A DNA stretch of 64,000 nucleotides from Narcine bancroftii (lineage: Eukaryota). Positions 1,696 to 57,118 of this stretch are shown one piece after another. Numbering within the stretch: position 1 is the first letter of the stretch; the number at the start of each line of letters is the position of its first letter. A model generated the notes under the pieces. The model saw nothing but the letters and a program-made list of their open reading frames with translations. It was not told the DNA's origin and did not search any database. The stretch covers positions 64,542,001-64,606,000 of the forward strand of contig NC_091470.1 in NCBI RefSeq assembly GCF_036971445.1, written 5' to 3'. The position numbers and the translations under genes were made by a program.

Positions 1696-4623
1696 GCTTG
1701 GCTTGGCGGACGAAGATTTATGGAGGGGGTAAATGTCCACGTTAGCTGCAGGCTCGTTTGTGGCTGACAAGTCCGATGCGGGACAGGCAGACACGGTTGC
1801 AGCGGTTGCAGGGGAAAATTGGTTGGTTGGGGTTGGGTGTTGGGTTTTTCCTCCTTTGTCTTTTGTCAATGAGGTGGGCTCTGCGGTCTTCTTCAAAGGA
1901 GGTTACTGCTCGCCGAACTGTGAGGCGCCAAGATGTACGGTTTTAGGCGATATCAGCCCACTGGCGGTGGTCAATGTGCCAGGCACCAAGAGATTTCTTT
2001 AGGCAATCCTTGTACCTCTTCTTTGGTGCACCTCTGTCACGGTGGCCAGTGGAGAGCTCGCCATATAACACGATCATGGGAAGGCGATGGTCCTCCATTC
2101 TGGAGACGTGACCCACCCAGCGCAGCTAGATCTTCAGCAGCGTGGATTCGATGCTGTCGGCCTCTGCCATCTCGAGTACTTCGACGTTAGGGATGAAGGT
2201 GCTCCAATGAATGTTGAGGATGGAGCGGAGACAACGCTGGTGGAAGCGTTCTAGGAGCCGTAGGTGATGCCGGTGGAGGACCCATGATTCGGAGCCGAAC
2301 AGGAGTGTGGGTATGACAACGGCTCTGTATACGCTAATCTTTGTGAGGTTTTTCAGTTGGTTGTTTTTCCAGACTCTTTTGTGTAGTCTTCCAAAGGCGC
2401 TATTTGCCTTGGCGAGTCTGTTGTCTATCTCGTTGTCGATCCTTGCATCTGATGAAATGGTGCAGCCGAGATAGGTAAACTGGTTGACCGTTTTGAGTTT
2501 TGTGTGCCCGATGGAGATGTGGGGGGGCTAGTAGTTATGGTGGGGAGCTGGCTGATGGAGGACCTCAGTTTTCTTCAGGCTGACTTCCAGGCCAAACATT
2601 TTGGCAGTTTCCGCAAAGCAGGACGTCAAGCGCTGAAGAGCTGGCTCTGAATGGGCAACTAAAGCGGCATCGTCTGCAAAGAGTAGTTCACGGACAAGTT
2701 TCTCTTGTGTCTTGGTGTGAGCTTGCAGGCGCCTCAGATTGAAGAGACTGCCATCCGTGCGGTACCGGATGTAAACAGCGTCTTCATTGTTGGGGTCTTT
2801 CATGGCTTGGTTCAGCATCATGCTGAAGAAGATTGAAAAGAGGGTTGGTGCGAGAACGCAGCCTTGCTTCACGCCATTGTTAATGGAGAAGGGTTCAGAG
2901 AGCTCATTGCTGTATCTGACCCGACCTTGTTGGTTTTCGTGCAGTTAGGTAACCATGTTGAGGAACTTGGGGGGCATCTGATGCGCTCTAGTATTTGCCA
3001 AAGCCCTTTCCTGCTCACGGCGTCGAAGGCTTTGGTGAGGTCAAGAAAGGTGATGTAGAGTCCTTTGTTTTATTCTCTGCACTTTTCTTGGAGCTGTCTG
3101 AGGGCAAAGACCATGTCAGTAGTTCCTCTGTTTGCGCGAAAGCCGCACTGTGATTCTGGGAGAATATTCTCGGCGACACTAGGTATTATTCTATTTAGGA
3201 GAATCCTAGCGAAGATTTTGCCTGCAATGGAGAGCAGCGTAATTCCCCTGTAGTTTGAGCAGTCTGATTTCTCGCCTTTGTTTTTGTACAGGGTGATGAT
3301 GATGGCATCACGAAGGTCCTGAGGCAGTTTTCCTTGGTCCCAACAAAGCTTGAAAAACTCATGCACTTTGACATGCAGAGTTTTGCCGCCAGCCTTCCAG
3401 ACCTCTGGGGGGGATTCCATCTATACCTGCTGCTTTGCCATTTTCAGTTGTTCAATTGCCTTATATGTCTCATCCCGGGTGAGGACCTCATCCAGCTCTA
3501 GCCTTAGGGGCTGTTGAGGGAGCTGGAGCAGGGCGGAATCTTGGACTGAGCGGTTGGCACTGAAAAGAGATTGAAAGTGTTCTGACCATCGGTTGAGGAT
3601 GGAGATCTTGTCGCTGAGGAGGACTTTGCCGTCTGAGCTGTGCAGCGGGCTTTGGACTTGAGGTGTGGGGCCGTACACAGCCTTTAGAGCCTCGTAGAAA
3701 CCCCTGAAGTCGCCAATGTCCGCGCTGAGCTGGGTTCGCTTGGCGAGACTAGTCCACCACTCATTTTGGATCTCCCGGAGTTTGCGCTGAAGATGGCTGC
3801 ATGCGCGACGGAAGGCTTGTTTCTTCTCTGGTCAGGACGGCTTTGTAAGGTGAGCCTGGTGGGCAGCTCGTTTCTTTGCCAGCAGCTCCTGGATTTCCTG
3901 GCTGTTATCATCGAACCAGTCCTTGTTTTTCCTGGAGGAGAAGCCCAGTACCTCTTCAGTGGATTGCGGTATGGTAGTCTTCAGCTGATCCCAGAGGGTT
4001 TCAGGGGACGAGTCCGTGAGGCGGATTGCATCCTCGAGCTTTGCTTTGAGGTTTGCCTGGAAGTTTCCTCTCACTTAGTCTGACTGCAGGTTTCCAACAT
4101 TGAACCTCTTTCTGGGGTCTTTACTGTTCCTGGGCTTTGGCTTGAAGTGAAGGTTGAGCTTTCAGCGAACCAGCCGGTGGTCAGTGTGGCATTCCGCGCT
4201 GGGCATGACCCTGGTGTGGAGCACATCTCGTTTGTCTCTTTCTCACACCAGGGTGTAGTCCAGGAGTTGCCAGTGTTTGGATCGGGGATGCATCCAGGTA
4301 GTCTTCAGGCTGTCCCTCTGCTGAGAAAGGGTGTTTGTAATGACAAGCCGCTGCTCTGCGCAGAGCTCCAACAGGAGGTGCCCATTGTCATTGCACTTGC
4401 CGACACCATGCTTGCCCAGGATTCCTGGCCATGTTTCTGAGTCTTTGCCAACGCGAGCGTTGAAGTCGCCAAGGAGGACAACCTTGTTGGCTGTAGGGGT
4501 GCGTCGAATGAGGTTGCGCAGGTCAGCGTAGAACTTGTCCTTTTCTGCTGGTTCCGCCTGGAGGGTTGGAGCATAGACACTGATGAGGGGGATGCAACGC
4601 TTGTTTTGAAGGGGGAGTCGCAA
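1696..4623 (-). mobile_element. 5'-truncated young RTE-clade LINE (AP endonuclease + reverse transcriptase, few disablements)
   Basis: ORF fragments VYAPT/LLGDFNARVG (APE), YRGITLLS, QCGFR, KQGCVLAPTLF, LLFADD (RT); (GCCAA)n 3' tail; 11-bp TSD GATCTACTTTG at 1685-1695 and 4624-4634. Confidence 0.92.
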
Positions 4624-5768
4624 GATCTACTTTGTATTGACTGGAAAACCAACACTGCAAATTTAATATTCCAAACACTTCTACAGGAGTATAAGCATTT
4701 AGCAAAATTTAACTAGCTGAAACTTGTTTATATTTACTTTATTAGATAATTGTTCAATACTGGAATACGATTTTATCCAAACATTAGATTTAAATTTTCG
4801 CAATATTCCACCAAGTGCTTCAGTTTACATTTCTTAACCAGTCTGAAGCAAGAGGGTACATAATCAGCAGCTTTGTACATCACTGTCCTAGTGGGACCAT
4901 CATGTACCTTGAAGATCCCTGCCTCTGGTCAACATCTGATCTTTGCATGAAATTCCTTTCACAAAAATGAATGAATATTAGCCACTGCAAAGGTAATTTA
5001 GACACAGCAGGCTTGTTATTCTTAGAAGTGACCATCACATTTAACTGCCTTGTCCCTTGACATGCATTTTTAGTTTACCTCAAGAACAAAATTACAGGTG
5101 CTATTGATCTTTGGAGCTTCACATTCTTTGATGTAAATTCTATTCTGTAAAATCATGGCAAAGGCTTTTGACTCCAAATGTTACCATGTTTACATCCTCG
5201 AGCTAATCAAAGTTTCAGAATGACTGCCATAATTGTGTGGTGATGAGAAGTTATCTTTCAAAATGTTCAGATGGTTTCTTTCTTTTTGTCAGCTGAACCT
5301 TCCATCTGTGCAAAACAAGTCCGGATTTTGTGGGCCAAGTACACAGAAAGTGATATTGAAGTATATTTTAAAGGCCATTCCCTTTGTCCAGATTTTTGAA
5401 TTTTGATTGTTATCATTGAAATTTATCTTCCATTCACCAACACCTACAACATGAATATAATTTCAGGTTTTGTGATTTTGACAACCATCTATGAGTGTCA
5501 AACCATCCAAGGAAATCTTCTGGACTGGTTAAGAAAGTAGCTGTACTTTAAAAAAAAATTGCTGTGCAGCACAGGGTCTCATCAATTTCCATTAACTCAA
5601 GAAAGAATATTCCTGTATTTAAAAAAAGAGCTATTGAGAAAATTCCCAATACAATGCTTGTTCTTAATTCCTGCTCCTTATCTGTGCATCTTTTAGAAAA
5701 CAAGATACTGTAGGTATTTTTAAAAATCCAATACAACTGATCTTGAATCACTTTATTTTCATTGGTAG

Positions 5769-11628: not shown

Positions 11629-11881
11629 CCTAATGTTAAATTCCAATTATCTGCTCATAAACCTCACGTCCATTATTCTGCACAGAGTGTTTACGGAAAA
11701 GTTTTCTCACAAAAATTCCAATGATTGCTTTTAATTTTATGCAAACCAGGTAAGGGCATAGAGAATACATCTGTATCTAAAAAGAATATTTTATGTCAAA
11801 TGTATTTACTCAATGGCTGTGAATAAATTAATGCACTAAGAAACTGAACATCATTGTACTTATCGAAAATCATATACTTAC

Positions 11882-12088
11882 AAAGGAAATACAGCTTCCT
11901 GCGTACAGTGCAAGGTAGTTATATAATCTGGACTTGGATTATATAACATTGTATACCAATCCGAAAGCATCTTCACATGGCAGGATCGGATCTTAAGCTC
12001 TCCCACTGGATCATTCACCAACAATGTGATAATGGCTGCAACAGCACATTCTAATAATGCAGTCACATGCTGAAAAAGTGCACTCGAA
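11882..12088 (-). CDS. JKAMP: JKAMP exon 4 (SSALFQHVTALLEC...CTQEAVFP)
   Basis: gtacag / gtaagt sites; LSDWYTMLYNPSPDY motif. Confidence 0.95.
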
Positions 12089-12658
12089 CTGTACAAAAAA
12101 AAAAGATTTTTCAGATGAACGTTGTTAAAAACTTTCAGATTGATTATGATGCACATGATTGTCCTTTAGACCCTCAATCTTTATTCACTTATTTTGTGGA
12201 TCTAACAACACTTTCTCTTGAATATGGTTTCCGTGGTATTTTTCACTTTGTACAAAAATCTTACCAGTCATATGTACAACTTTGCTGTGTAAAGAACAAT
12301 TGCCGATGAATTGAAAGAGCTGCAATTTCTATTTAATGAAAATAGAATTACTTGAGCACCAACCTCTGTTTTATTTCTTCAAAGCCCAATTTAGATATGC
12401 CTTTGGCCATAAACTCATCTGGACTCCATAATAAATGTTCAGTTCTACCCACGAAGCAAATTAAATGAAATGCAAATGAACAATCTTAATTCATTTACTT
12501 CCAGCCCCATAGATCGTACTGGATAAAATTTTGTGATCCAGCAAAAAAAAGTATAAGATTGAATCTATTATGACATTTATGACAATCAATTCAATAATGA
12601 ATAAAAATAGATTCAACCATATCCTATTATAACACAATGTTTCTCTAATAACACAAAC

Positions 12659-17618: not shown

Positions 17619-17866
17619 CGGGGCAGAACAGAAGCTGCAGATCTCTCCGAAGGGAGGGCCTTCGCTTAATTCCAGAGCCCACCTATTCGGCGGGATGAGT
17701 TATGGACAGAGATTCCATCTCCCGCAACCGGACAAGGGCGACAGTTAACGTCAGTCCCTGGCCGTCCCCCAATTCACCCTCTGTTCTTCGGAAAACTGCT
17801 CGTAAAATAGTTAGGCGCCAACATACTTTCGCCAGGACAGCCCCACCCCGCATAGCGCTGCCTTAC

Positions 17867-17870
17867 CCAT
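17867..17870 (-). CDS. JKAMP: JKAMP exon 1 coding part (ATGG)
   Basis: ATGG|GTAAGG on the minus strand inside the CpG island; phase 1 fits exon 2 (ATG GAT ATT). Confidence 0.75.
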
Positions 17871-18003
17871 ATCGAAGTCCAGCGAAGCTCCAAACGCCGC
17901 CGCGCCCCTCCACCGGAACACAGCCACCCACTTCCGATTGACCCTTGGGACGCCACCCACCTCCGGTTGACCCCTCCGGTCGCTCTGGAGAGCCCGATGC
18001 TCG
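17871..18003. promoter_or_regulatory. Bidirectional CpG-island promoter shared by JKAMP and L3HYPDH
   Basis: 133 bp between divergent start codons; CpG-rich; opposed ETS-type motifs CCGGAA (17913-17918) and ACTTCCG (17930-17936). Confidence 0.7.
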
Positions 18004-18490
18004 ATGGCGACGGCGCTGGCGCGGACGCCGCCGGGCGATGGCTCCGTGCTCTCGGTACTCGACATGCACACGGGCGGGGAGCCGCTGCGCATCGTCACCG
18101 GCGGCTTCCCACCCGCGCTCGGAGGCGACCTCCTGAGCAAACGGCGCTACGTGCGCTCCAAGCTGGACGGGCTGCGGCGGCGACTGCTCTTCGAGCCCCG
18201 AGGCCACCGCGACATGTACGGCGCGCTGCTGGTGGGCTCGGAGCGGCCTGACGCGCACCTCGGCGTCCTCTTCATGCACAACCAGGGCTACAGCACCATG
18301 TGCGGCCACGCCATCATGGCACTTGGCCGCTACGCCCTAGACTACGGCCTGATCGCCGAGCCCAGCTCCCCCGAGACGCAGGTCAACATCCACTGCCCCT
18401 GCGGCCTGGTCCGGGCTTTCGTTCACTACAATAGGGGCAAGAGCGGCCGCGTCCGCTTCCACAGCGTCCCTGCCTTCGTCTTCGCTGCAG
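18004..18490 (+). CDS. L3HYPDH: L3HYPDH (proline racemase family) exon 1
   Basis: DMHTGGEPLRIV, EPRGHRDMYGA and MCGH (Cys100 at 18301-18303) motifs; gtaggg donor; five exons sum to 1044 nt = 347 aa. Confidence 0.95.
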
Positions 18491-22226: not shown

Positions 22227-22396
22227 ATGTTCCTGTTGATGTACCAGGATATGGGAAGATTGTGGTGGATGTTGCATATGGTGGCGCTTTTTATGCATTT
22301 GTGAGTGCAGATTGTTTTGGTTTGGATGTTTCTTCCTCCAGGACCCAACACCTTGTAGATGCAGCAGTGGCTGTCACTAATGCTGTGAAAGTGCAG
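22227..22396 (+). CDS. L3HYPDH: L3HYPDH exon 2 (DVPVDVPGYGKIVVDVAYGGAFYAF...AVKVQ)
   Basis: tttcag / gtgcgt sites; DVAYGGAFYA motif; phase-consistent. Confidence 0.95.
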
Positions 22397-23258: not shown

Positions 23259-23381
23259 GTCCAACTGCATCACCCTGACAGTGAAGATCTTGCCTTCTTA
23301 TATGGCACTATAATAACTGATGGCAAAGATGCATTTTCTGAAGAGCCAACAGCAAATATTTGTGTTTTTGCAGATGCTCAG
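23259..23381 (+). CDS. L3HYPDH: L3HYPDH exon 3 (VQLHHPDSEDLAFLYGTII...VFADAQ)
   Basis: accag / gtagaa sites; 123 nt in frame. Confidence 0.95.
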
Positions 23382-24661: not shown

Positions 24662-24799
24662 GTTGACAGAAGTCCCTGTGGTTCAGGCGTGACAGCTCGT
24701 ATTGCACTGCAGTATTATAAAGGATTGATTCTCCTGAATCAGACTAGAACATTTCAAAGTGGTCCGACAAGCTCATTATTCACAGGAAAAGCTATTGAA
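24662..24799 (+). CDS. L3HYPDH: L3HYPDH exon 4 (VDRSPCGSGVTARIALQYYKG...GKAIE)
   Basis: aatag / gtgagt sites; second catalytic motif DRSP-C-GSG with TGT at 24677-24679. Confidence 0.95.
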
Positions 24800-32177: not shown

Positions 32178-34617
32178 CGGCGTTGGACAGGGGAGGGGGA
32201 GACTGACAGCCGGCGTGGTCCGGGGAGACTGACCGGCGGCGTGGACCGGGGAGACTGACAGCCGGCATGGTCCGGGGAGAGGGAGACTGACAGCCGGGGT
32301 GTTCCGGGGAGACTGACCGGCGGCGTGGACCGGGGAGACTGACAGCCGGCATGGTCCGGGGAGAGGGAGACTGACAGCCGGGGTGGTCCGGGGAGTCTGA
32401 CAGCCGGCATGGTCCGGGGAGGGGGAGACTGACAGCCGGGGTGTTCCGGGGAGACTGACCGGCGGCGTGGACCGGGGAGACTGACAGCCGGCATGGTCCG
32501 GGGAGAGGGAGACTGACAGCCGGCGTGGTCCGGGGAGACTGACCGGCGGCGTGGACCGGGGAGACTGACAGCCGGCATGGTCCGGGGAGAGGGAGACTGA
32601 CAGCCGGGGTGTTCCGGGGAGACTGACCGGCGGCGTGGACCGGGGAGACTGACAGCCGGCATGGTCCGGGGAGAGGGAGACTGACAGCCGGCGTGTTCCG
32701 GGGAGACTGACCGGCGGCGTGGACCGGGGAGACTGACAGCCGGCGTGGTCCGGGGTGACTGACCGCCGGCGTGGACCGGGGAGACTGACAGCCGGCATGG
32801 TCCGGGGAGACTGACCGCCGGCGTGGACCGGGGAGACTGACAGCCGGCGTGGTCCGGGGAGACTGACCGCCGGCGTGGACCGGGGAGACTGACAGCCGGC
32901 ATGGTCCGGGGAGAGGGAGACTGACAGCCGGCGTGTTCCGGGGAGACTGACCGGCGGCGTGGACCGGGGAGACTGACAGCCGGCGTGGTCCGGGGAGACT
33001 GACCGCCGGCGTGGACCGGGGAGACTGACAGCCGGCATGGTCCGGGGAGAGGGAGACTGACAGCCAGCGTGGTCCGGGGAGACTGACCGGCGGCGTGGAC
33101 CGGGGAGACTGACAGCCGGCGTGGTCCGGGGAGACTGACCGCCGGCGTGGACCGGGGAGACTGACAGCCGGCATGGTCCTGGGAGAGGGAGACTGACAGC
33201 CGGCGTGGTCCGGGGAGACTGACCGGCGGCGTGGACCGGGGAGACTGACCGGCGGCATGGTCCGGGGAGGGGGAGACTGACAGCCGGCGTGGTCCGGGGA
33301 GACTGACCGGCGGCGTGGACCGGGGAGACTGACAGCTGGCATGGTCCGGGGAGAGGGAGACTGACAGCCGGCGTGGTCCGGGGAGACTGACCGCCGGCGT
33401 GGACCGGGGAGACTGACAGCCGGCATGGTCCGGGGAGAGGGAGACTGACAGCCGGCGTGGTCCGGGGAGACTGACCGGCGGCGTGGACCGGGGAGACTGA
33501 CAGCCGGCGTGGTCCGGGGAGACTGACCGTCGGCGTGGACCGGGGAGACTGACAGCCGGCATGGTCCGGGGAGGGGGAGACTGACAGCCGGCGTGGTCCG
33601 GGGAGACTGACCGGCGGCGTGGACCGGGGAGACTGACAGCTGGCATGGTCCGGGGAGGGGGAGACTGACAGCCGGCGTGGTCTGGGGAGACTGACCGGCG
33701 GCGTGGACCGGGGAGACTGACCGGCGGCGTGGACCGGGGAGACTGACAGCTGGCATGGTCCGGGGAGGGGGAGACTGACAGCCGGCGTGGTCCGGGGAGA
33801 CTGACCGGCGGCGTGGACCGGGGAGTCTGACAGCCGGCGTGGTCCGGGGAGAGGGAGACTGACAGCCGGCGTGGTCCGGGGAGACTGACCGCCGGCATGG
33901 ACCGGGGAGACTGACAGCCGGCATGGTCCGGGGAGGGGGAGACTGACAGCCGGCGTGGTCCGGGGAGACTGACCGGCGGCGTGGACCGGGGAGACTGACA
34001 GCTGGCATGGTCCGGGGAGGGGGAGACTGACAGCCGGCGTGGTCCGGGGAGACTGACCGGCGGCGTGGACCGGGGAGACTGACCGGCGGCGTGGACCGGG
34101 GAGACTGACAGCTGGCATGGTCCGGGGAGGGGGAGACTGACAGCCGGCGTGGTCCGGGGAGACTGACCGGCGGCGTGGACCGGGGAGACTGACAGCCGGC
34201 ATGGTCCGGGGAGGGGGAGACTGACAGCCGGCATGGTCCGGGGAGGGGGAGACTGACAGCCGGCGTGGTCCGGGGAGACTGACCGGCGGCGTGGACCGGG
34301 GAGTCTGACAGCCGGCGTGGTCCGGGGAGACTGACCGGCGGCGTGGACCGGGGAGACTGACAGCTGGCATGGTCCGGGGAGGGGGAGCCTGACAGCCGGG
34401 GTGGTCCGGGGAGACTGACCGGCGTCGTGGACCGGGGAGAGGGAGACTGACCGGCGGCGTGGACCGGGGAGACTGACAGCCGGCATGGTCCGGGGAGAGG
34501 GAGACTGACAGCCGGCATGGTCCGGGGAGGGGGAGACTGACAGCCAAGGTGGTCCGTGGAGACTGACCGGCGGCGTTGGACCGGGGAGTGGGAGACTGAC
34601 CGCCGGCGTGGTCCGGG
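32178..34617. repeat. GC/CpG-rich minisatellite of 26-bp and 32-bp units, often arranged as 84-bp (26+26+32) higher-order repeats
   Basis: Units GACTGACAGCCGGCGTGGTCCGGGGA, GACTGACCGGCGGCGTGGACCGGGGA, GACTGACAGCCGGCATGGTCCGGGGAGAGGGA; roughly 85 units estimated from length. Confidence 0.97.
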
Positions 34618-34852
34618 CAGCGAGGGGTGGGGGGCGACCGATGTTGTGTGTCCTGCTGAGGTTGCGCAATGAGGGAACGGGGTTCGTTGAGATTTGCCGC
34701 CGCGGGGGAGACGATGCAGAGAGACTGGGAAGGAACGGGGGCGAGAGATTGTCGCCAGTGGAGTCTGGGAGCCGCGACCCAAACCAGGGGCCGTTCCTCC
34801 GCCGAGACGACGCCCGTGAGGAGTAGAGACTCGGGCGCGTTGTTCGGACCCC

Positions 34853-36121
34853 ATGGATCTGTTTAGCGGGACAGCGGTGCCGAGTAACCTCACCCTGCTC
34901 GCCAACCACACCGACGCGGCTCCGCGGGAAGGGGCGAACGCGCAGGCCGATGACGGCTCCCCGCTCCACGGCGCGGCCGTGGCTTCCAAGGCTCTGCTGC
35001 TCCTGTTCATCTTCCTGCTGTCCAGCCTGGGCAACGCGGCGGTGATCGCCGTGATCGTCAAACACCGGCAGCTGCGGACCGTCACCAACGCCCTCATCGT
35101 GTCCTTGTCCCTGTCCGACCTGCTCACCGCCCTGCTCTGCGTCCCCTTCGCCTTCATCACGCTCTTCAGCGACGGTGTCTGGGTCTTCGGCGACCGCTGG
35201 TGCGTGGCCAACGGGTTCTTCAACTCCTGCTTCGGGATCATCTCCACCCTCACCATGACCCTCATCTCCTTCGACCGCTACCACGCGATCGTCAGGCAGC
35301 CGCGGGAGAAGATGGGCAAGCGGCTGGCGGCGCAGCTCCTGGCCGGCGTCTGGCTGACGGCCGGCCTGGTCTCTTTCCCCTGGTACCTCTTGTGGCCCAC
35401 CCCGGGGCCGCCAGTTCTTCACAAGAAGGGCTTCTACCACTGCATGGACATCTTGCGCTCGGACACTTCCCGCATGGGCGCCGGCTACAGCATCGCCCTG
35501 ATTGTTACCTGCTACCTGTTGCCCTTCTCCCTGATGTGCTTCTGTCACTACCACATCTGCAAGGCCGTGAGGCTGTCGGAGATCCGAGTGCGCCCGGTCA
35601 CCACCTACGCCCACCTGTTGCGCTTCTACAGCGAGATGAGGACGGCGACCACCGTATTAATCATGATCGTCTTCATCATCGGCTGCTGGGGTCCTTACTG
35701 TGTCCTGGGGATCGTCACGGCCACTGGCCACTCTCATTTCACCCCCGTCCTGGACACGGTCGCCGTCTGGCTGGCCTGGTCTAACGGAGCGCTCAATCCA
35801 CTCATCTACGCGAGCAGAAACCCCAGCATCTCCCTGCTTTGGGGGAGCAAACGGGAAGATGGTTACAGGACGAGAAATCTCGCAGCCTACTTGTCTCAGC
35901 AGAATCGGGACCATGAGGGTCGGGGTCGGGCAGACAGGACGAGGGAGCGCTGCGTCGGCCGACAGGGGACGGGCACCATGTCCTCCTCCAGCCCGGCGAA
36001 TGGGGAGGTGGCCAGGTGGGCCTGCAAGAATCCAGCCGTGCTTTTCTGCCGGGATGGGCAATCGGACACAGGGCCCGAACCTGGGGCAGCCAAATCAGCG
36101 ATTGGAGACACTACCCTTTAA
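34853..36121 (+). CDS. GPR135: Orphan class A GPCR GPR135, single coding exon, 422 aa
   Basis: 7 TM with GN, LSLSDLL, FDRY, CWGPY, NPLIY; GPR135-typical [31 protein letters not shown]; syntenic position. Confidence 0.95.
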
Positions 36122-39589: not shown

Positions 39590-40595
39590 TTTATAACATA
39601 ACATATAACATAACAATTACAGCACAGAAACAGGCCATTAGGCCGTTCTAGTCCGCACCGAACCAAACACCCCTCTCTAGTCCCACCTCCCTGCACAATG
39701 CCCATAACCCTCCATCTTCTTCTCATCCATATACCTGTCCAACCTTTTCTTAAATAATACAATTGACTCCGCCGCCACTATTTCTCCCGGAAGCTCATTC
39801 CACACGGCTACCACTCTCTGAGTAAAGAAGTTCCCCCTCATGTTACCTCTAAACCTCTGCCCCTTAATTCTTAACTCATGTCCTCTTGTTTTAATCTTTC
39901 CTCCTCTTAACGGAAATAGTCTATCCACATCCACTCTGTCTATCCCTTTCATAATCTTAAATACTTCTATCAAATCCCCTCTCAACCTTCTACGCTCCAA
40001 AGAATAAAGACCTAATCTGTCCAATCTCTCCCTATACTCTAGATGCTTAAACCCAGGTAACATTCTGGTAAACCTTCTCTGCACTCTCTCCACTCTGTTT
40101 ATATCCTTCCTATAATTAGGCAACCAGAACTGCACACAGAACTCCAAATTAGGAGTCTTATCCAATCTCAACATCACCTCCCAACTCCTATATTCCATGC
40201 AATGATTGATAAAGGCCAGCATACTAAAAGCCTTCTTCACCACCCTATTCACGTGAGTTTCTACCTTCAGGGAACGATGTACCGTTACTCCTAAATCTTT
40301 CTGCTCTTCTGTATTCATCAATGCTCTCCCATTTACCACGTATGTCCTGTTCTGATTCTTCTTACCAAAATGAAGCACCTCACACTTATCAGCATTAAAT
40401 TCCATCTGCCATTTTTCAGCCCACTTTTCTAAGCAGCCCAAATCCCTCTGCAATCCTTGAAAACCTTCTTCATTATCCACTATTCCACCTATCTTAGTAT
40501 CGTCTGCATATTTACTAATCCAATTCACCACCCCATCATCTAGATCATTAATGTATGTAACGAACAACAATGGGCCCAATACAGATCCTTGAGGA
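39590..40595 (-). mobile_element. Young 5'-truncated CR1 LINE (RT C-terminal part, open frame)
   Basis: ORF 39677..40645: PQGSVLGPLLF, SKYADDTK, WQMEFNADKC, LYSLERRRLRGDLIE; short-repeat 3' tail at ~39595-39620. Confidence 0.9.
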
Positions 40596-42169
40596 AAAAA
40601 AGATTGAGGGATATCTTCAGCATCTTGGCTGTGCATGGTACCCACCTGTTCAAACAGTACCTATGGCCAAGAAGAGCATGATAACCTATCTAAAATGACT
40701 ATTGAACAGCAGCACATCCACAGTGATGATGTGAGGTGGGAAGTGTGCTGACCTGCTGTATCACGGACTGGTATGAGGACACTGATACTCCTGAGCAGAA
40801 AGCCCTGTGAAAGGTAGCTGGCACAACAAAGGGAGAATCCTCTCCATCATTGATGACATCTACAGGATATACTGGTGTCATCACGTTAAAAAAACTCCCC
40901 CATCTCTTTTGGCTCCATACACAGCCGACCACTATGATCTTCAAGGAGACCAATTTTGCACTTAAACATCCTTTTGCTCTTAATATACTTGTAGAAACCC
41001 TTAGGATTTTCCTTCACATTGTCTGCCAAAGTAACCTCACATCTTCTTTTAGCCTTTCTGATTTTTTTCTTTTTTTTTTTGCATTTATTATACACCTCAA
41101 GTATCACATTTGCTTCGTGTTGCCTATACCTATTATACACCTCTCTCTTGTTCCGAACCAGATCCCCAATATCCCTTGAAAATCAATGATCTGCTTGCTT
41201 AACTTTGGATTTAATCCTGACAGAACAAACTGTGAACTCTCAAAATTTCACCTTTGATGGTCCTCCACTTGCCTCGCAAATCCTTGCCGCAAAACAACTT
41301 ATCCCAATCCACACATTCTTGATCCTTTCTCATTTCCTCAAAATTGACGTTTCTCCAATTTAGAATCTCAGCCCGAGGCCCAGACCTATCCTTCATCATA
41401 ATTAACTTGAAACTAATGGCACTGGACCCACAATGTTCCCCATTCTTCTGTTACCTGTCCTGTCTCATTCTCTCATAGGAGATTCAGTATTGCTCCCTCT
41501 CTAGTTGGTACCCCTATATATTGATTTAGAAAACTTTCCTGAACAGGTATCTTTTACCCACTATGGACACAGCGAGACTGGCTGAGTTCCTCCACCATCT
41601 GTGTTTTTGCTACATCAACTGACACCAGCCTTCAATTCACTCCTAACTTGCCTTTCCCACTCCATTCTGCTGCCCATATCCGACCCAGAACCAAACTTAT
41701 TCACCTTCTCTGATCCCAATCTACAATGGATCCTGATTAAGGTTACAATGTTCAAGTTATCCTTGTATTTAAATTCCTCCATTATTGCAAATTCCTTTCA
41801 TAACTCTGTGCTCCTTTAACCTTGTCATTCTGAGATACTGTGCTCCTCTGGGTTCATCCTTCAATATAAATATTTCACCACTAATTCCCAAAGACGTGGA
41901 GATTTAGACTTTAACTGCCTTTCAAAATCTCGTTTCCTTTCACTTTGTGAAAAAGGTTTTCTTACTGAAGCATTTAGCCATCATCTGCAACATTTCTTTC
42001 TGTGAATGTTTTTGGTTTGGTACCAATGGAAAATTTTTCAATGTTAAAGGGCATCATATAAATGGATTTTTTATGGAAAAATATTACAACTCAGTGTTGC
42101 CAATATTTTTTCATTAACATTTTTAAAGTGTGTGATTAAGTCATAATCTCATCCTTTGGTTTTTCCCCT

Positions 42170-51182: not shown

Positions 51183-51322
51183 NNNNNNNNNNNNNNNNNN
51201 NNNNNNNNNNNNNNNNNNNNNNNNNNNNNNNNNNNNNNNNNNNNNNNNNNNNNNNNNNNNNNNNNNNNNNNNNNNNNNNNNNNNNNNNNNNNNNNNNNNN
51301 NNNNNNNNNNNNNNNNNNNNNN
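51183..51322. other. Assembly gap (140 N), probably in or near the DAAM1 3' UTR
   Basis: Run of N. Confidence 0.99.
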
Positions 51323-52864: not shown

Positions 52865-55330
52865 CTAAGGTTTTAAAAAAAAAGAACCTTATGAAAGCTG
52901 CCAACTCATTCAATCTGAGAAGACAGACCATTTTCCATACATTATATATGAACATGGGACAATTTGTAGAATTCAAAGCCAAGCCACAACTTCTTTAAAG
53001 CAAAACAAAAATACTGAAAGTATCACTGAAGAGAGCAGAGAAAAGAACAGAAGACTTGAACCATTGCCCCGGAAGATGCAGTTTCCATTTGAAGTAAATA
53101 TCTAACCAGGAACATCAATACCTAAAGTATCTAAATCACCCATTACCAATCCCATGGCAAAACAAATAGAACCAATGCACAGTTTCATAAATGTATCTGG
53201 TGGTAGGAAATGACTGAAAAACACATTAAATTAAAATCACAAATATTTAATAGCCAAACAAATAAATAACTCTTCTATCTAATGCACATTTGATCAGATA
53301 CTCATTTGATTTTACATACACCAAAGTTTTTCTCTCTCTCTAAACCTTCATTTATAGCTTTCAAAACTTATGCCAGTTTTAAAACAGGAAATTTATAAAT
53401 GTAACATGTGTAAGCTAAGAAAAAAAATACAACTGACACAATGTGCCAAGACATGAACAGATGTGAACAATATGACTGAATTAATCATTTACCACATACA
53501 AATGATCCTAAAACTATAAAATTCACTTGTTCAACATCTGCCTTCAAGCATTTGGTCTTCAAAAATCTAATTTGCAACGGATGGAAAACATCCATGTCAA
53601 GATAGCCAAAGTTTGTTTTTAATCAAACAATATTGCAAATAAGATAGAATTTTGAAAATATCACAGCTGAACTCTCAAAAGTCTTCTCCTACCAGTTCAG
53701 GAAATAGCAGCAAGTGGAAGGGTATTATTTCTTGAACACGTTTTAGTTATTAATGTCCATGTCAGTACAGTAATTAACACTAATTATTTGTGTTTTCCTG
53801 GTATTTCAATGGATACCTTTATTATAGGCAGTTAAGGATCTCTTGTTGTCAACTTTAGTTATGCAAAATATTTGACAAAATCTTGGAATATATATATTAT
53901 GATATTACTCCACAAAACTATTTTTGGGTATTTAACATAAAAAGCAATAAATAAATACAAAATAAGCAATCACACATTGCCACTGATGCATTAAATACAT
54001 CATAGAGTTCTGTCAAAGTGCTGTACTGCTCTGAATTTTGCTGCCTTGATACTGGTATTTATCACAATTTAAATTTCAGTGACAAAATGTGATCTGCTTC
54101 TACTTCTATCATATGAGCTCCATACATTATGTCTAATCTATAACTCTAGTCAATGCCTCATTCAATGAATAGGGTGCAAGTTCATGCCTGTGGCCAATGG
54201 TGTGTTACTTTTAATAATTTAGACATGTCAATCTTGTGTGGCATGGACAACTGATGATTATCAGTAGATGAATGAAATAGTTCCTGAAATTTGGTGGCTG
54301 GTAGAATTGGAAGTCCTGATCTCAACTAACAAGTTTGCAACAGACTCCCTCTCAGTGCAAATTACTTTCAAGGAGGTCTGTATCAACAGCCAACACTTCT
54401 CTCCATTTTGCCCAAAGTAATGTTCTACTTGGTCTCCAACAAACTTCCTGCTGGAATGGAATTAATCCACGTTGATTAATTCATTCATTTTTTTAAAAAA
54501 AGACATACAGCACGGTAACAGATTCTTTCGGCCCTCAAGCTGGTATCACCCAATTGACCAAGAACCCTGGTACATTTTGAACAGTGGGAGAAAACTGGAG
54601 CAATATGGGGAGAACGTACAAACTCTTAACAGCCAGTGCCTGGTCGCTAGCACCATATCCCTACTACACTAATCGTTCCACCTGTGCTGACATCATCAAG
54701 CATCTTCCATTGATGGATAAAATCACCATCTATATTCAAATATGTTCAAGGAAAGTCAGGGATGACTACTTGGTCCCTCCATTAGATGAATTCTGCAGTT
54801 TCTGTCAGATTTATGCCCATGGCACAGATGTTGACCTGCTATCAAGCATTCGTGTGATTGGGAACATTGAAGATACTCATCAATTTTTCCATCTTCCCAA
54901 GGACTTTGTTCAACTCATCAATGACAATTCTAAGATACCATTGCAACTACATCATGCATTTGGTAAAACAAATCAAGAATGAACAGTAATTTTTTGTTAG
55001 AAAGCTACAAAATCTCCATCAGATTTAAATATATATATTGTATTCAAATCCAAACATTTTTAAATGGAGTCGGTTATGTTAACATCATTACTGCAAGAAT
55101 TGTTTTGTTAATAAAGAGATAACATCCAGAATAGCTCAGAATTTAAGGTTTATATGTGGGACTTGAAATAATTAATCATTCCTGCTATCACCTTCCAAAA
55201 ATTAATCTCCTTGGAAGTGGCTACCATTTGATAATATACCAAAGAATGCACACTGAAGTTTTCTTGATTTTTTTTGTGGTGGGGGTTGGGGGTTGGGGGG
55301 GAAGAAGAGGAACCAATTACTCCATCTGAC

Positions 55331-55501
55331 CTGTGCTTCCATTTTAGCTCTTCGTTCTTCTTCCTCCTTTTTCTTCCTCATGTTCTCATTTTCCTGTTTG
55401 GCCTCTGCAAAAGCTTGGAGAAACTGATCAAAAATTCCAAAGAATTCATCAGGCTGTATTTTGCCAGTTTCTTCTCCAAAGTACTTGACAGCTTTATTAA
55501 A
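55331..55501 (-). CDS. DAAM1: DAAM1 exon ([11 protein letters not shown]...[14 protein letters not shown]...MEAQ)
   Basis: accag / gtcaga sites; FH2 C-terminal motif; 171 nt. Confidence 0.93.
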
Positions 55502-57118
55502 CTGGTTTGTTGGAGAAGAGAGAAACAGAAATAGGTTGACAGATCAATATACAAATTTTAAAAACTCAGCAATAAAAATGAGTTTTTCAATAGATTAAAA
55601 AAAAACTGTTCCCCAAATTTATTCTCATATGTAGTTCAGTGTCAGCATGAGATCGGAAACACTTTCCCAAGCATAAAATGCCAACCTATTCTAAAAATAA
55701 CAAAAGTAAATCATCAAAATTGGAAAAATTGAAAAGTTTGCAAAACACCATGACTAAGAAATCATGTTATTTGCTAGCTTCTGCTGGGATTTCCTGTCAA
55801 TCTCATACATCTCCCAGTTCTACTCTGAAGTCAGGTTCAATTATCCAATGTTTCATTGGGCCCATGTACTTTCCGTGAAATACCTCATCCACAACACATT
55901 GAAACCATGCCATGACTGCATCAAACAGTTGTTGGCACAGCCCTGAATCTCCATCCAATAAGAACTTGCACACACATCATTTTTAAATTGTAATGTTGCA
56001 GAAAACTCTAGTTTGACCAGAGCCTATACAACAATGTCGCACACAAAGAATTGTCAACAAAAGACTTAGATGCCAAGTTTAAGTGTGATGAAAAGAAGGG
56101 CAAGAATTCTGTTTCTGATTTCAGCTTTGTTTCTCAACCCCATCGAATCTCTTCTGAGTATCATTCAGTTTCCCACTGCTGCTGCTCAACTTAGTCAAAA
56201 GTGGTTTAAAAAAATTATAGGCAGTAGTGAACACTTTAATTTTGATCATAAAACTGTTGTAAAGATTTTATTGGTAAAATTTTCATTTGTTAAGTCCTTT
56301 GATGTATTCATACTGTTTCACTATTAATTCCACCTGTACATTTTTTTTTAATATAGGTTGAGGTAAATACATTTACTTTATTGAGCACAGGAACCAGGCA
56401 AGTAGTTAATCACTTGAATAAAGCACCCATGACCACAGAAACTGCCAGGTGGTCAAAACAATTCATTACTGAAAAAAAATTCTGTTTGGAATATCTTCAT
56501 TTGGATATTGAATAAAGATGAAATGTTGCTCAAAGGCAAGTCATAGATCCAAACAAACAGATCAAAATTTATAGCAAAAAGCCAATGACAAATAAATATT
56601 TAAAACACACATACAGGAAGCAAACTTCAACCTAACAATTTCTGAATTTATCAGCAAGGACAGAGGAGGTGGAATTTAAATGAGAAAAGGTTACTTTTAA
56701 GCATCTCTGTTGATTTTATACGGGAATTCCTTGACTGAATTGAGACAGAGCTTGACTTGGTGACATTTCTTTCGCCCGAAGTGGACCGTCCAGGAAAAGC
56801 AGCATTCCTGACATTAGTGCAACTCTCAAACTAACCAACTAAAATAGCAGTGCAGCATAGATCCAGTTCAGAATACAAGAAGACAAAAATGTTTGGAAGC
56901 ATCTCTGACTCCTGCTCTTTGATCGTTGGAACAGCAGTCAACATTTGATCAGGAGACAAAGAATCTTCACATGTAGGAGCCATGCCAATGAAGACCATTA
57001 ACAGGAAGCCACTCACACAAATAATCCACAGAATGCCCTACCCCCATCAATAAAACTCAAATACAGGGAAGACAATTCCAACAATTTTGACATTTTGGTG
57101 ATATTTGGTGATATTTAC

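Follow-up and report, generated by a model that had tools for sequence, protein, structure and literature searches.

Which reaction does a vertebrate L3HYPDH catalyze when both of its catalytic positions are cysteines? The field sorts the superfamily to which this enzyme belongs by its catalytic dyad, with Cys-Cys denoting racemases and epimerases and Cys-Thr denoting dehydratases, and the vertebrate gene has been treated as lacking the second cysteine. We addressed the question in a 64,000-nucleotide stretch of the Narcine bancroftii genome (NC_091470.1, positions 64,542,001 to 64,606,000; hereinafter the window), for which an initial annotation had proposed an intact, syntenic L3HYPDH with a Cys/Cys dyad, acting as a hydroxyproline epimerase or racemase instead of a dehydratase.

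An intact L3HYPDH gene with two catalytic cysteines

The exon 4 codons at 24665-24688 (GAC AGA AGT CCC TGT GGT TCA GGC) translate to DRSPCGSG. Joining five exons across introns that all have GT..AG boundaries yields a 347-aa product with zero internal stops, identical to the NCBI Narcine bancroftii trans-L-3-hydroxyproline dehydratase (P0001). The gene spans 8.5 kb, is the one L3HYPDH copy within the 64-kb window, and encodes the catalytic pair Cys100 (in MCGH) and Cys266 (in DRSPCGSG); the proposed dyad and the intactness of the gene are thus both borne out by the sequence and the exon join (Table 1). The synteny held as well: the neighbors are frames with a JAMP domain, a 7tm_1 domain and, with a weak match, an FH2 domain, which we take to be JKAMP, GPR135, and DAAM1, respectively, in what is presumably also the gene order of the human L3HYPDH neighborhood.

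The Pro_racemase domain (PF05544) covers residues 18-344 of the Narcine protein with 356.5 bits against a cut-off of 27, and a search of the ESM Atlas returned nothing further than PF05544. Of the relatives with a solved structure, human L3HYPDH (7QPO; full-length E 3e-165) is the best match; its chain reads DRSPTGSG, and the fold is certain because of this match. The three prokaryotic NCBIfam models tried (NF045511, NF010576, and NF010578) do not separate functions for these proteins: the dehydratase model NF045511 scored 348 bits, the racemase model 282, and the epimerase model 223, all below their cut-offs, as was also the case for the Thr-type Latimeria protein.

Elsewhere in the window, a GC-rich tandem array of ~83 copies of a 26-base unit (32196-34588) lies just upstream of the GPCR frame and generates spurious open frames of ~1,000 codons on the minus strand. 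Broken reverse-transcriptase-bearing elements, presumably LINE-like, are found on the minus strand at 2129-4626 and 39680-41182 (PF00078 in frames 2531-2944 and 39680-40660), with more fragments of reverse-transcriptase elements within L3HYPDH intron 1; an assembly gap (N run) of 140 bases at 51183-51322 lies far from L3HYPDH.

Table 1. Features of the L3HYPDH locus, in window coordinates.
Feature	Position	Strand	Evidence
Frame with JAMP-domain exon; synteny marker upstream of L3HYPDH	11881..12165	-	PF05571 E 6e-30
CpG-rich stretch across gene start (GC 0.63-0.73, CpG o/e 0.9-1.3)	17800..18400	.	Base composition
L3HYPDH exon 1 (Met1 to codon 163; HTGGEP, Asp70, Tyr72, Gln94, MCGH, Cys131)	18004..18490	+	7QPO match, E 1e-66
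Tyr72 codon, R1/site 1 (Phe in proline racemases, Tyr76 in human dehydratase)	18217..18219	+	Alignments, conservation
Cys100 codon, first catalytic Cys (human Cys104)	18301..18303	+	Exon join and alignment
L3HYPDH exon 2 (GGAFY motif; Tyr185 = human Tyr192)	22227..22396	+	Exon join and alignment
L3HYPDH exon 3 (residues 220-260; pocket Tyr234, Gly235, Phe256)	23259..23381	+	Exon join and alignment
L3HYPDH exon 4 (residues 261-306; DRSPCGSG)	24662..24799	+	Sequence, exon join
Cys266 codon TGT (human Thr273)	24677..24679	+	Sequence, exon join, alignment
L3HYPDH exon 5, through stop codon	26396..26521	+	Exon join
Single-exon rhodopsin-family GPCR (7tm_1); synteny marker downstream	34820..36118	+	PF00001 E 2e-50
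Frame with FH2-domain exon; synteny marker downstream	55205..55543	-	PF02181 E 1e-5, below curated cut-off

Cys266 across vertebrates

Two homolog searches, considered for the best 120 of 5,891 and the best 120 of 379 matches, together supplied 175 rows with a species name, which were kept, and 22 without one, which were left out. Cys266 is present in all 12 chondrichthyan rows from the best 120 matches of each search and in all 21 further chondrichthyan rows from a cluster look-up, giving 33/33 rows from 22 species of rays, skates, sharks, and the chimaera Callorhinchus. By contrast, none of the 163 bony-vertebrate rows has Cys at this site: 158 have Thr, one has Ala, and four are isoforms without the normal motif. 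Cys266 is therefore common to all cartilaginous fishes sampled, which settles for these species whether the state is lineage-wide, a point on which the initial annotation had not committed itself. Its argument that a sequencing error is unlikely stands, and the occurrence of the same Cys in 22 species disposes of both such an error and a single-species quirk. A 343-aa Logan record with 99% identity to the Leucoraja protein likewise carries the two cysteines; its contig is 2,510 bases long, as against the far longer Narcine gene, and it is hence most likely a spliced transcript.

The shark entries examined are named 'dehydratase' or 'hypothetical protein' throughout. In the openly accessible literature searched, including the accessible parts of PMC8779045, PMC4417235, and PMC4141209, we found no mention of a Cys/Cys vertebrate ortholog, nor any work joining L3HYPDH with sharks. 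Separately, the Sinocyclocheilus anshuiensis protein P0079 has Ala at the Thr/Cys site and no recognizable MCGH, and probably represents either a duplicate in decay or an error of the gene model.

The remainder of the pocket is of the dehydratase type

In the bony rows, 134 alignment columns have a constancy of 95% or more, and most chondrichthyans depart from them at just three (V19L, V320I/V, and T266C); in these fishes, Asp70, Tyr72, Met99, Cys100, His102, Cys131, Tyr185, Tyr234, Gly235, Phe256, Asp262, Arg263, and Ser268 are conserved. The residues described for binding and closure in the human enzyme (Asp74, Tyr76, Met103, Cys104, Cys137, Tyr192, Tyr241, Arg270, and Ser275; PMC9309405) correspond, in this order, to chondrichthyan Asp70, Tyr72, Met99, Cys100, Cys131, Tyr185, Tyr234, Arg263, and Ser268, and the seven non-cysteine positions among them are retained in 11-12/11-12 of the chondrichthyan rows that cover each. 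Human L3HYPDH (7QPO) is an ortholog that shares the pocket residues, with Cys104/Cys137 equivalent to Narcine Cys100/Cys131, but it differs in having Thr273 for Cys266 and Glu98 for Gln94; Gln in place of the usual Glu is also seen in 12/144 bony rows. Chondrichthyan branches are short in a 52-row tree, and, there being no long branch, we see no sign of relaxed constraint.

How, then, does the protein compare with the recognized classes? The Cys-Thr class of trans-3-hydroxy-L-proline (T3LHyp) dehydratases is defined by its dyad (PMC4364671); the Narcine protein has the pocket residues of this class but a Cys/Cys dyad. It has the two cysteines in MCGH and SPCG motifs of a proline racemase (EC 5.1.1.4), but Tyr72 and Gly235 where racemases have Phe at R1 (Phe102 in T. 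cruzi) and Cys/Leu at R2. Likewise, it has Tyr72, Gly235, and Phe256 where 4-hydroxyproline 2-epimerases (EC 5.1.1.8) have Ser/Val at R1, His at R2, and Cys/Tyr at site 5; the assignment of Phe at R1 to racemases, and of Ser/Val at R1 with His at R2 to hydroxyproline epimerases, is that given in PMC1964878. In the same source, two Cys/Cys proteins from Bacillus whose R1 residue is Tyr or His were inactive both as proline racemases and as hydroxyproline epimerases. T. cruzi 1W61, clostridial 7PB3, and T. litoralis ProR/HypE 6J7C resemble the Narcine protein in their Cys/Cys dyad, MCGH and DRSPCG motifs, and Phe at site 5 (Trp in 6J7C); however, they have Phe at R1 and Leu/Cys at R2 as opposed to Tyr72 and Gly235, and their matches are weaker (E 1e-55 to 1e-69). 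What the Narcine protein combines, as read from the alignment, is a second-site Cys, the putative proton donor, with a T3LHyp-binding pocket, as would be expected of a T3LHyp 2-epimerase or a bifunctional enzyme.

Same-pocket Cys/Cys proteins in bacteria

When GTDB was scanned with a pattern for the dehydratase-type motif in its Cys form, at least 120 loci (L001-L120) were recovered, 80 of which had flanks; 78 of these were counted, two being left out as their gene was not parsed. Among the loci listed, Tyr234 is found in 113/114 and Gly235 in 112/114 of the parsed genes, Phe256 being fixed by the pattern, and the N-terminally covered genes have Tyr72 in 76/77 and the first catalytic Cys in 77/78. 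OCD/mu-crystallin proteins constitute the pyrroline-2-carboxylate (Pyr2C) reductase family. An OCD/mu-crystallin gene occurs at 46/78 of the flanked loci listed (37 on the same strand), a D-amino-acid oxidase (DAO)-family gene at 16/78 (13 together with OCD and three without), and neither at 29/78, all of these counts covering Cys-type loci alone. Most DAO loci additionally have a second racemase-family gene of the 4-hydroxyproline-epimerase type.

These bacterial proteins have in common with the chondrichthyan enzyme the Cys/Cys dyad, Tyr72, Tyr234-Gly235, Phe256, and membership of a wider clade (SH-aLRT 99), but they are ~33-40% identical to the shark protein and form separate basal branches, whereas the shark gene lies within a Thr subclade. 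The family is spread across Actinomycetota, Bacillota, Acidobacteriota, and Chloroflexota, with ACGH replacing MCGH in 51/78. At one Cys/Cys locus, from Bacillus hominis (L058), the racemase-family gene is followed by a transporter gene and then an OCD gene; both Bc0905 primers and the Bc0906 forward primer of PMC4113996 match this locus with 1-3 mismatches, against 0 matches expected by chance, and its protein is an apparent ortholog of Bacillus BC0905. The Bacilli cluster with OCD neighbors (cluster 5) was assayed as t3Hyp dehydratases (PMC4113996), and BC0905 is probably both Cys/Cys and a member of that assayed cluster. Judged by its motifs and gene neighborhoods, the bacterial family breaks the usual rule that equates Cys-Cys with a racemase or 4-hydroxyproline epimerase.

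History of the second catalytic site

One phylogenetic tree was computed from representatives with a species name (5 + 14 without one were left out) and rows of at least 255 aa; a more careful tree has 52 rows. In a quick tree of 45 rows, Cys lineages are basal in the pocket clade (SH-aLRT 99), and the vertebrate gene falls with Dongia/Bosea proteins into a Thr subclade. As the vertebrate gene nests in the Thr subclade, the shark Cys is, on this tree, a return to Cys at some depth. A second-site Cys is also found in Solemya, Mya, Batillaria, Saccoglossus, Ciona, Styela, and the fungus Paraglomus, and Thr in Macrostomum; several of the Cys-type invertebrate rows also depart from the motifs at other residues.

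In the 52-row tree, in which the long branches of Ciona and Styela are in play, the Cys invertebrates group apart (95/91) and the Narcine protein is nested inside a jawed-vertebrate clade (100/99). Contrary to the species tree, chondrichthyans come out next to tetrapods (95/92); this is probably an artefact, since bony-vertebrate monophyly is not rejected (p-AU 0.40). A single clade of sharks and Cys invertebrates, which would indicate hidden paralogy, is rejected (p-AU 0.0065). Constraining jawed vertebrates together with Cys invertebrates gave a tree 2.1 log-likelihood units above the free one (p-AU 0.57), which undercuts the branch of the free tree that it contradicts. Neither the matches listed nor the 30 proteins looked up included a row from lamprey, hagfish, or amphioxus. 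The chondrichthyan Cys may thus be either a reversion in the shark stem or a retention of an older animal state. The far-reaching proposition that a functional hydroxyproline epimerase, free of cofactors, makes free cis-3-hydroxy-D-proline from collagen in cartilaginous fishes, and that Cys/Cys is the older animal state (seen in molluscs, a hemichordate, and tunicates) with Thr regained solely in bony vertebrates, strikes us as rather improbable.

Several further observations pertain to the rows in these trees. The Dongia-centered search (query P0198) listed Cys/Thr in 119 of 120 rows, and P0198 was rejected as an invertebrate protein, its relatives having proved to be Dongia-like alphaproteobacteria. 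It is 59% identical to the Narcine protein, and the Dongia/Rhodospirillaceae-like Cys/Thr proteins P0428, P0447, P0480, P0497, and P0508 are ~55-57% identical to it; among the rows listed these are equal to or closer than the invertebrates (Solemya 56%, Macrostomum 41%, Styela 40%), a possible lead on a bacterial origin or transfer of the animal gene. The 90% cluster of P0255 (P0255, P0357, P0361, P0365, and P0367) has one Cys and three Thr rows, and the pair compared is 93% identical, which indicates that the second site can switch over short distances. The second Cys is present but the Asp of DRSP is lost in the L3HYPDH-like proteins of Saccoglossus, Batillaria, Ciona, and Styela (P0212, P0277, P0324/P0349, and P0240/P0353), and those of the tunicates have also lost the His of MCGH; the Saccoglossus, Batillaria, and tunicate proteins may form a divergent subfamily in animals that acts on another substrate. 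The 560-aa model P0417 (Solemya velum) holds a complete Cys/Cys copy plus part of another, and is probably a tandem duplicate fused by annotation.

Predicted activity

By alignment, chondrichthyan L3HYPDH is orthologous to the human dehydratase and carries a single catalytic change that is fixed class-wide; because the rest of its pocket is dehydratase-type, it reads as the human Thr273Cys mutant occurring in nature. That mutant is a trans-3-hydroxy-L-proline epimerase according to PMC3958920 and PMC10875296, which cite Visser 2012, in agreement with the initial annotation. The two proteins have the same dyad on the same scaffold, while the shark version differs in being natural, fixed across a vertebrate class, and of predicted activity. 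A further parallel is Pseudomonas aeruginosa LhpL (PaLhpL, PA1255), which performs both dehydration and 2-epimerization of T3LHyp (PMC5144071); its second residue is Cys too, but its first is Ser and it belongs to a different subfamily. Because of PaLhpL, the Bacilli assays, and the bacterial OCD loci (an OCD neighbor being also compatible with epimerase and D-oxidase routes ending in Pyr2C), a second-site Cys would by analogy add epimerization and need not abolish dehydration. From the sequence, its distribution, the pocket, and the bacterial gene context, we infer for both activity and flux that the chondrichthyan protein may be a bifunctional trans-3-hydroxyproline 2-epimerase/dehydratase, a prediction to which we give about an even chance. 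The earlier proposal of an epimerase or bifunctional enzyme accordingly survives as the likeliest reading, while its qualifier 'instead of a dehydratase' is weakened by the OCD context at 46/78 of the bacterial loci listed.

Under the bifunctional prediction, Cys100 would abstract the C-alpha proton, as in the dehydratase, and its conjugate acid could assist the loss of the 3-hydroxyl, these being steps of the dehydratase mechanism given in PMC4113996. The carbanion could then take one of two branches: loss of the 3-hydroxyl would give Pyr2C, which would be reduced to L-proline, and reprotonation by Cys266 from the opposite face would give cis-3-hydroxy-D-proline, whereas a Thr at the second site would have no proton to return. 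Since epimerization is reversible and dehydration is not, the net flux would probably still drain through Pyr2C to L-proline; the D-epimer would form a side pool and an extra salvageable substrate that the shark enzyme could also consume.

Two other readings retain some credibility. In one, dehydration is mostly lost, with trans-3-hydroxy-L-proline being converted to cis-3-hydroxy-D-proline, which is excreted or oxidized by D-amino-acid oxidase. The plain description of human Thr273Cys as an epimerase in PMC3958920 and PMC10875296 is consistent with it, the more pertinently as the shark protein, 71% identical to a primate ortholog, is nearer to that mutant than to any bacterial analog, and the fixation of a two-base change across holocephalans and elasmobranchs suggests selection. 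We nonetheless consider this reading doubtful: a DAO-family neighbor without OCD is found at just 3/78 of the same-pocket bacterial Cys/Cys loci listed, against 46/78 with OCD, which weakens the oxidase route that the initial annotation had envisaged; 13/78 have both, with the second racemase-family gene noted above at most DAO loci; and the literature searched, in its titles and abstract openings, yielded no paper on D-proline or D-imino acids in sharks.

In the other, the swap is nearly silent and the enzyme remains a dehydratase for practical purposes, with Cys and Thr each able to serve as the second ligand-binding residue at a site that toggles over long times. The Tyr/Tyr-Gly/Phe pocket clade, with its basal Cys lineages, its Thr lineages, and three changes on 45 rows, the mixture of one Cys and three Thr rows within the P0255 cluster, the recurrence of Cys in Paraglomus and molluscs, and the Bacilli cluster assayed as dehydratases (PMC4113996) all point this way. 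However, Thr in 158/163 bony rows and in 119/120 of the rows listed from the bacterial search argues that the site is not freely exchangeable, and human Thr273Cys gains epimerase activity (PMC3958920, PMC10875296); hence, this reading too seems to us improbable, though not negligibly so.

A true proline racemase or 4-hydroxyproline 2-epimerase, producing D-proline or cis-4-hydroxy-D-proline in sharks, would account for both catalytic cysteines with their MCGH and DRSPCG motifs and for the match of Phe256 to Phe290 of the T. cruzi racemase. Because of Tyr72, in place of the Phe of racemases or the Ser/Val of 4-hydroxyproline epimerases, either activity is unlikely; Gly235 in place of Leu/Cys or His, Phe256 in place of the Cys/Tyr of the epimerases, and the dehydratase NF045511 as top NCBIfam model, though all models fall below cut-off, point in the same direction. 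The inactivity on proline and hydroxyproline of the Cys/Cys proteins with Tyr or His at R1 (PMC1964878), together with Tyr72, likewise weakens the D-proline product suggested at the outset. As broad specificity does exist in the family, T. litoralis ProR being one Cys/Cys enzyme that acts on proline, 3-hydroxyproline, and 4-hydroxyproline (PMC4364671), this reading keeps a small probability. Finally, a sequencing or assembly error, a pseudogene, or a hidden paralog has next to no likelihood given 22 concordant species, intact splice sites, the transcript-like Logan record, the synteny markers, and the tree tests above, even though a Thr-type second copy could lie elsewhere in shark genomes, the searches having covered the best 120 matches each.

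Implications

Both reactions are already known in the family; what the literature searched did not contain is the natural, class-wide Cys/Cys vertebrate form, in which a whole vertebrate class carries the change once engineered to switch the reaction of the human enzyme. The name 'dehydratase' on the shark database entries is accordingly unverified. The pathway carries a minor flux, and the reach of the finding is limited to that extent. Should the shark enzyme dehydrate exclusively, the dyad rule would be wrong for its clade, as the bacterial loci already hint. Were it active as predicted, it would be a vertebrate amino-acid epimerase, in a family whose known eukaryotic stereo-inverting members are those of trypanosomes, and would add an endogenous origin for a D-imino acid. 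The shark enzyme also offers a test, provided by nature, of whether a single residue decides which reaction takes place, as has been claimed.
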